22,174 nt of DNA from a virus (Duplodnaviria; Heunggongvirae; Uroviricota; Caudoviricetes): positions 1 to 22,174 of the IMG/VR virus record IMGVR_UViG_2869924733_000011; one strand, given 5' to 3'. Positions 222 to 448 of this stretch are shown one piece after another. The notes beneath the pieces are model-generated. The model had not been told where the DNA came from and did no database searches. It saw nothing but the letters and a program-made list of their open reading frames with translations. The number at the start of each line of letters is the position of its first letter. Position 1 is the stretch's first letter. Made by a program: the position numbers and the translations under genes.

Positions 222-290
222 ATGGCGCTTTACACAATTGGTGAAGTGGCGTTGCTTTGTGATATTAATCCTGTCACGTTACGCGCGTGA
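222..290 (+). pseudogene. mlrA: 5' remnant of a MerR-family regulator gene (recalled as mlrA/yehV): 22 codons then stop; probable prophage insertion junction
   Basis: ATG at 222 behind an AGGGTGAG Shine-Dalgarno; translation MALYTIGEVALLCDINPVTLRA* is a MerR-type HTH start matching my recollection of MlrA. No frame continues a MerR fold after ~290. The 214..399 track ORF overlaps it out of frame. Confidence 0.45.
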
Positions 291-448
291 CGCAACATTT
301 TTAAAAATCGACGAAGATCGTCCAGAAGCGCCGTTTTTCAAGGGTTGGATAGATGATTCGTTTACCATGTCGACGAACTTCGACGAATTTCGCCGATAAA
401 AAGTGTCCCATACATGCCCCATTGATGCCCCATAAACAATATCAGGAA

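Follow-up and report, generated by a model that had tools for sequence, protein, structure and literature searches.

A truncated mlrA gene marks the integrase-distal end of an ipaH-carrying lambdoid prophage relic

The DNA analysed here (IMG/VR record IMGVR_UViG_2869924733_000011, 22,174 nucleotides, called the window below) opens with a reading frame of only 22 codons that resembles the start of a regulator gene. The question raised by this locus is whether the short frame is the severed beginning of a bacterial gene and, if so, what severed it and where the remainder lies. An initial annotation had noted a good ribosome binding site and a MerR-type helix-turn-helix start at 222 that run into a stop and unrelated sequence at about 290, had assigned the gene to mlrA (yehV), and had proposed that the break is a prophage attachment junction. 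The features of the window are collected in Table 1.

Bases 1–289 are 100% identical to the btsS–mlrA intergenic region and codons 1–22 of mlrA at intact Escherichia coli loci, and in loci L001 and L002 the btsS coding sequence terminates immediately to the left of window base 1. Among the matches listed, which are a spread sample of the ranking, intact loci align at 99–100% identity (E about 1e-148), and the alignments break off exactly at base 289. This identity excludes a chance reading frame and identifies 222–290 as the authentic start of mlrA, preceded by the gene's own ribosome binding site (GGGTGAG, 213–219). Both the start and the gene name given in the initial annotation are correct, 222–290 aligning to mlrA at 100%. 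The frame is translated as MALYTIGEVALLCDINPVTLRA and ends with a TGA at 288–290. The first two bases of this stop (TG, 288–289) are the last in common with mlrA, and the A at 290 is the first phage base. Reading past this point, intact mlrA continues ...CGC GCG TGG CAG..., whereas the window continues ...CGC GCG TGA CGC AAC.... Intact MlrA has 243 amino acids, and a domain profile places the MerR_1 helix-turn-helix domain at residues 4–72; since the stub ends at residue 22, the gene is broken within the DNA-binding domain. A published multiplex PCR of mlrA occupancy employs the diagnostic primer yehVRJfor (AAGTGGCGTTGCTTTGTGAT), which matches exactly at 244–263, just to the left of the attachment core.

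Table 1. Features of the window (positions are those of the window; strand given where applicable)
Feature	Position	Strand	Evidence or remark
Intergenic region between btsS (yehU) and mlrA, including the native upstream sequence and ribosome binding site of mlrA	1–221	+	100% identity to intact loci
Truncated mlrA 5' end, codons 1–22 and TGA	222–290	+	ATG-started open reading frame, translation
20-bp common core CCTGTCACGTTACGCGCGTG	270–289	none	Exact copies in attB, attP and both prophage junctions
Imperfect palindrome TGTCACG-TTACGCG-CGTGACG	272–292	none	Repeat search, terminator-like match, hairpin of -9.7 kcal/mol
Degraded lambdoid prophage	290–22174	none	Continues for 38 nt plus core beyond the window
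Phage arm of the int-distal junction (P arm, lambda convention)	290–514	none	About 98% to L009, also in phi330
Candidate arm-type sites, 20-mer GTGTCCCATACATGCCCCAT (403–422) and ATGCCCCAT (425–433)	403–433	+	Repeat counts, conserved in L009
dinI-like gene, first phage gene inside the junction	515–763	+	NF007893, E 5e-20
Class I SAM-methyltransferase gene, 222 aa	1205–1873	+	Just upstream of ipaH, apparent phage cargo
ipaH effector gene	2189–3832		
gpJ tail-tip gene fragments	9421–10521, 11733–12317	-	Split by IS4-family transposase gene
IS4-family transposase gene splitting gpJ	10323–11669		
IS block (IS110, IS4, IS3, IS91, IS30-type)	12553–18912		About 6 kb
209-aa open reading frame near xis	19483–20112	+	No Pfam match
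Excisionase (xis), 84 aa, full length	20600–20854	+	PF06806, E 7e-31
Tyrosine integrase (int), 428 aa, full length	20888–22174	+	PF12167 and PF00589
Candidate arm-type site, int-proximal arm, within int 3' end	22140–22159	+	20-mer repeat

If the stub is one end of a prophage, the rest of mlrA should lie beyond the other. The integrase gene does occupy the opposite end of the window, as the initial annotation had it, and reads outward, toward the mlrA 3' fragment, with its stop codon (22172–22174) as the last bases of the window. The int-proximal junction lies about 40 nt past this point and was read from an exactly overlapping public record. When the entire window was searched against complete E. 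coli genomes, no record covered at least 80% of it, and the best coverage (35%) was that of EIEC strains. Since no complete E. coli genome covers the window, the right-hand flank was taken from a look-up of the exact integrase protein, which occurs in six NCBI assemblies. One of these, CP027027.1 (locus L004), contains the last 7,287 window bases with 0 mismatches, and the IpaH protein of the window falls on the same record precisely at the coordinate predicted from this overlap; together these place the window at 4,039,074–4,061,247 of CP027027.1. Another of the six, AAMJ02 (L003), is presumably Shigella dysenteriae 1012. Past the int stop, CP027027.1 has another 38 nt of phage DNA and a second copy of the core, after which mlrA resumes at codon 23 (...TTAATCCCTGTCACGTTACGCGCGTG / GCAGAGGCG...). 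The genes after this mlrA 3' fragment are yohO, yehW, yehX, yehY, osmF and bglX. The int-proximal arrangement is the same in all six loci. The missing part of mlrA is thus found where the initial annotation had predicted it, and the window junction is the prophage end distal to int (attR in the lambda/Sakai convention).

The two junctions have a short core in common, which had also been predicted. Exact copies of the 20-bp sequence lie at 270–289 of the window, at 7326–7345 of L004, at 2770–2789 of the uninterrupted locus L002, and at 5113 of L009 (NZ_CP133119.1). The repeat extends to 265–289 (TTAATCC...) if a one-base difference is tolerated. This difference is CC in attB and the window junction and CCC in attP and the int-proximal junction, a pattern that puts the strand exchange somewhere rightward of base 271. 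The palindrome that overlaps the core would represent two inverted core-type integrase sites (272–278 and 286–292) around a 7-bp overlap (279–285), and the crossover probably took place within this 7-bp spacer, TTACGCG. A run of T residues follows at 297–301. Palindrome and T-run together (272–301) score as an intrinsic-terminator-like element directly after the truncated mlrA stop, and in attP such a structure would sit just downstream of int. Across the four att contexts only the T-run differs, and the palindrome folds about equally (-9.2 to -9.7 kcal/mol). Retroregulation of int in the manner of lambda sib, with int transcripts terminating in different hairpins in attP and in the prophage, was considered and rejected, as a difference in the T-run alone is weak ground for it.

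The two prophage ends also allow the phage attachment site to be rebuilt, with the core set between the phage DNA of the int-proximal junction on one side and that of the window junction on the other. The rebuilt attP was compared with the stretch between int and dinI in NZ_CP133119.1. This circular record of 47.9 kb, part of an O157:H7 assembly, has the order xis-int-attP-dinI and the CCC form of the core. The alignment is gapless and colinear, with about 98% identity over about 440 bases. The same two arms flank the core in phage phi330 (L011, PV189401.1). This phage is deposited as a 'complete genome' in which the 20-bp core occurs twice in tandem (L011 2526–2565), probably an artefact of prophage-end joining with both core copies kept. 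Because its core is doubled, phi330 supports the order of the arms and not the exact attP sequence, and it was rejected as an independent attP. For Sp15, the Stx1 prophage in yehV of strain Sakai, attP has been determined by PCR of excised circles (Asadulghani 2009, PMC2669165, Fig. S5). The R, P and L sequences of that figure equal, respectively, the window junction, the rebuilt attP and the L004 junction over the published stretch. The literature bears out mlrA/yehV as a lambdoid integration locus in E. coli, as had been claimed. The element belongs with the Sp15/VT1-Sakai-type prophages of this att site, having the same target gene, the core at both ends and once in the empty site, the matching attP, and an integrase of that type adjoining one junction with an excisionase gene upstream.

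The recombination genes are consistent with this assignment. The integrase consists of an N-terminal arm-DNA-binding domain (PF12167) and a tyrosine-recombinase catalytic domain (PF00589). It shows 95% amino-acid identity to the L009 integrase without gaps, and its DNA is 93–94% identical to the integrase genes of VT1-Sakai (93.8%), BP-4795, YYZ-2008 and JLK-2012. The excisionase is equal in length to the annotated xisR of L009. Repeated motifs occur in both arms. The 20-mer GTGTCCCATRCATGCCCCAT is present once per arm (403–422 and 22140–22159), these being its sole occurrences in the window against 0 expected by chance, and ATGCCCCAT occurs 3 times in the window against 0.27 expected, the third copy being that at 425–433. 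Measured from the core start, the positions of the copies in attP are -62, +144 and +155. These motifs are good candidates for arm-type integrase sites. The overall layout resembles that of lambda att: an integrase with N-terminal arm-binding and catalytic domains, inverted 7-bp core repeats with a 7-bp spacer, a motif repeated in both arms (repeats and motif being putative integrase sites), and an excisionase gene upstream of int. The sequences, however, are unrelated to those of lambda. In addition, the target here lies inside a coding sequence, and the phage supplies no replacement for the lost part of the gene.

The consequences for mlrA go beyond the split itself. At most, the stub could yield a peptide of 22 residues that includes a portion of the helix-turn-helix, and the mlrA 3' fragment lacks a promoter, a ribosome binding site and any canonical start codon in frame ahead of the core; mlrA is thus inactivated. 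The 3' fragment also carries an in-frame deletion of 75 bp (L004, about 7519/7520), just outside the window. This deletion is present in all six loci with the exact integrase (L003–L008), is flanked by a 5-bp GCGCG direct repeat, and shortens the MlrA helical domain by about 25 residues. The MerR_1 profile is matched by the 3' fragment only from position 16, and positions 1–27 of the helical-domain profile are lost. No single polypeptide has the full helix-turn-helix, helical and C-terminal domains. With these domains divided between the stub and the deleted 3' fragment, the locus is a split pseudogene and not a functional MlrA member. It has been hit twice, so that precise excision would not restore the wild type and the loss is permanent. 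Among complete E. coli matches to the deleted region, the 15 top-ranked ones listed all span 206 bp in two pieces and lack the deletion, and the first rank was not taken by a perfect match in one piece. The total count of E. coli genomes with the deletion is uninformative, because the two flanking pieces get joined. MlrA is a MerR-family regulator of csgD, and in O157:H7 a prophage inserted in proximal mlrA removes its activation of csgD and limits the curli and biofilm formation that depend on csgD; by analogy the host of the relic may have undergone the same loss.

Between the junctions lies a reduced lambdoid prophage. Its order from the window junction is dinI, a tail-fibre-assembly remnant, the methyltransferase gene, ipaH, tail-fibre genes, lom, the gpJ fragments split by IS4, the IS block, early-gene remnants, xis and int. 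The dinI gene is annotated as DinI-like in L001, L009 and L011. Genes for head, terminase, lysis, replication and immunity are absent between the junctions. The gene content fits Shigella (ipaH, and elements of the IS600, IS911, IS4 and IS91 types). The element is an IS-riddled 22-kb lambdoid relic with ipaH in a Shigella-type chromosome, not a Stx phage in E. coli. Upstream of ipaH, 119 nt before its start at 2189, positions 2054–2070 (+) perfectly match the MxiE-box consensus GTATCGTTTTTTTANAG. This match suggests that the prophage-borne ipaH may be controlled by type III secretion activity.

The closest described relative is Sp15/VT1-Sakai/CP-933V, the Stx1 prophage in yehV of O157:H7. The target gene, breakpoint, core and junction sequences are identical, the integrase DNA is about 94% identical, and the int-xis module and dinI occupy the same prophage ends. 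The relic differs in having no stx, replication, lysis or head genes, in its length of 22 kb with at least six IS-type insertions, in its ipaH with an MxiE box, in its Shigella-like host, and in the extra 75-bp deletion of the mlrA remnant. The lambdoid phages BP-4795, YYZ-2008, JLK-2012 and phi330 have the same integrase type, but are complete genomes of 55–58 kb, whereas the window has only the two ends, tail-fibre genes and cargo. As in the chromosomal ipaH copies on prophage remnants of Shigella and EIEC, ipaH here sits beside tail-fibre genes in what is left of a lambdoid phage. The best-matching EIEC strains have the first 5–15 kb of the window, with ipaH, in common with it. In EIEC genomes the common part runs from base 1 to about 5,700 or beyond and takes in the mlrA junction. 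In a wider survey, the same mlrA–phage junction was present in 475 of 5,426 complete E. coli genomes (about 9%), and 4,944 of the 5,426 were uninterrupted across attB. From these counts, nearly all split mlrA alleles in E. coli come from this phage family at this position. A junction-pattern scan of genome contigs gave one E. coli representative (L012).

It seems nearly certain, with a probability of about 0.97, that 222–290 is the 5' stub of mlrA left by integration of a phage of the Sp15/VT1-Sakai type. The identity of the stub, the two junctions, the duplicated core, the reconstituted attP and the relatedness of the integrase are all direct observations on the sequences compared. In this course of events, attP of a lambdoid phage recombined with attB in the region of mlrA codons 17–23 through a tyrosine integrase of this type. 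Exchange within the core at 270–289 produced the int-distal junction (attR) in the window and the int-proximal junction outside it, and the first phage base completed the TGA. The prophage later decayed to an IS-filled 22-kb relic keeping ipaH, xis and int, and the loss of 75 bp from the mlrA 3' fragment fixes the inactivation. As the window is dense in IS elements, and IS-mediated rearrangement is accordingly common in this genome, the truncation might also be ascribed to IS insertion, deletion or illegitimate recombination, the nearby integrase being coincidental. Such an origin is exceedingly improbable: there is no IS end at the junction, each end has one copy of the core, joining the two phage arms gives a genuine attP, and the break falls at the same base in the 475 E. 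coli genomes as in the Sp15 junctions of the literature. The chance that the junction is a chimera, in which assembly mis-joined mlrA to phage DNA, is close to negligible. Repeat-rich Shigella-type genomes are prone to mis-assembly, but the int-proximal junction recurs in six independent assemblies and the int-distal one in 475 complete E. coli genomes, and both the Sp15 junctions and a PCR-determined attP are published.

The retained recombination functions bear on whether the interruption is a reversible switch (active lysogeny), in which precise excision of the relic would restore a working mlrA when needed. Full-length int and xis and the intact cores and arms are compatible with this, Sp15 circularises in O157 Sakai, and the abstract of PMC5931665 suggests that prophage induction in O157:H7 may restore some mlrA properties. 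A switch is nevertheless very unlikely here, since the 75-bp deletion in all six loci means that excision would not yield the functional gene that active lysogeny entails, and IS elements now stand in place of the phage's regulatory and early regions, by which xis and int are normally driven. It is highly improbable that the stub has been kept for a use of its own, either as a functional small peptide of 22 codons or as the source of an mlrA promoter co-opted for the dinI-like gene. In favour of such a use, the stub retains an undisturbed promoter region, ribosome binding site and start codon, with dinI 225 nt downstream on the same strand. Against the peptide, conservation of the stub is explained by common ancestry with mlrA, and no selection on the peptide was found. 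Against co-option, a terminator-like hairpin and T-run lie right at the junction, and dinI has a promoter-like site of its own (449–478). Integration of a Sp15/VT1-Sakai-type phage into mlrA, followed by decay, is thus preferred. Because int, xis, both cores and both motif-bearing arms are retained, the relic might still be excisable. Excision as a 22-kb circle that is moved by a helper phage may be considered on the basis of these sequences, but is unlikely. If it did occur, the ipaH locus would be a mobilisable island common to Shigella and EIEC and not a dead remnant.

The site, core sequence, integrase family and phenotype are already published, and the only new details are local ones: the ipaH relic as occupant of the site in a Shigella-type chromosome, and the second lesion in the mlrA remnant. 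In the literature searched, no paper connects an ipaH prophage with mlrA, in Shigella or otherwise, none deals with CP027027.1, and the work on remnants of ipaH prophages has nothing particular to the mlrA locus. An ipaH relic at mlrA thus seems to be undiscussed in the literature searched, though it is visible in annotated genomes. Its importance is slight beyond correct annotation, in which the 22-codon frame is to be named the 5' portion of an mlrA pseudogene, 270–289 the prophage att core, and the junction an end of the prophage relic with ipaH. In O157:H7, prophage at the same site is known to cause a loss of curli and biofilm regulation, with which the loss of mlrA, fixed here by a second lesion, is in keeping. 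In EIEC genomes, the junction could serve as a lineage marker for the time at which the ipaH phage was acquired.
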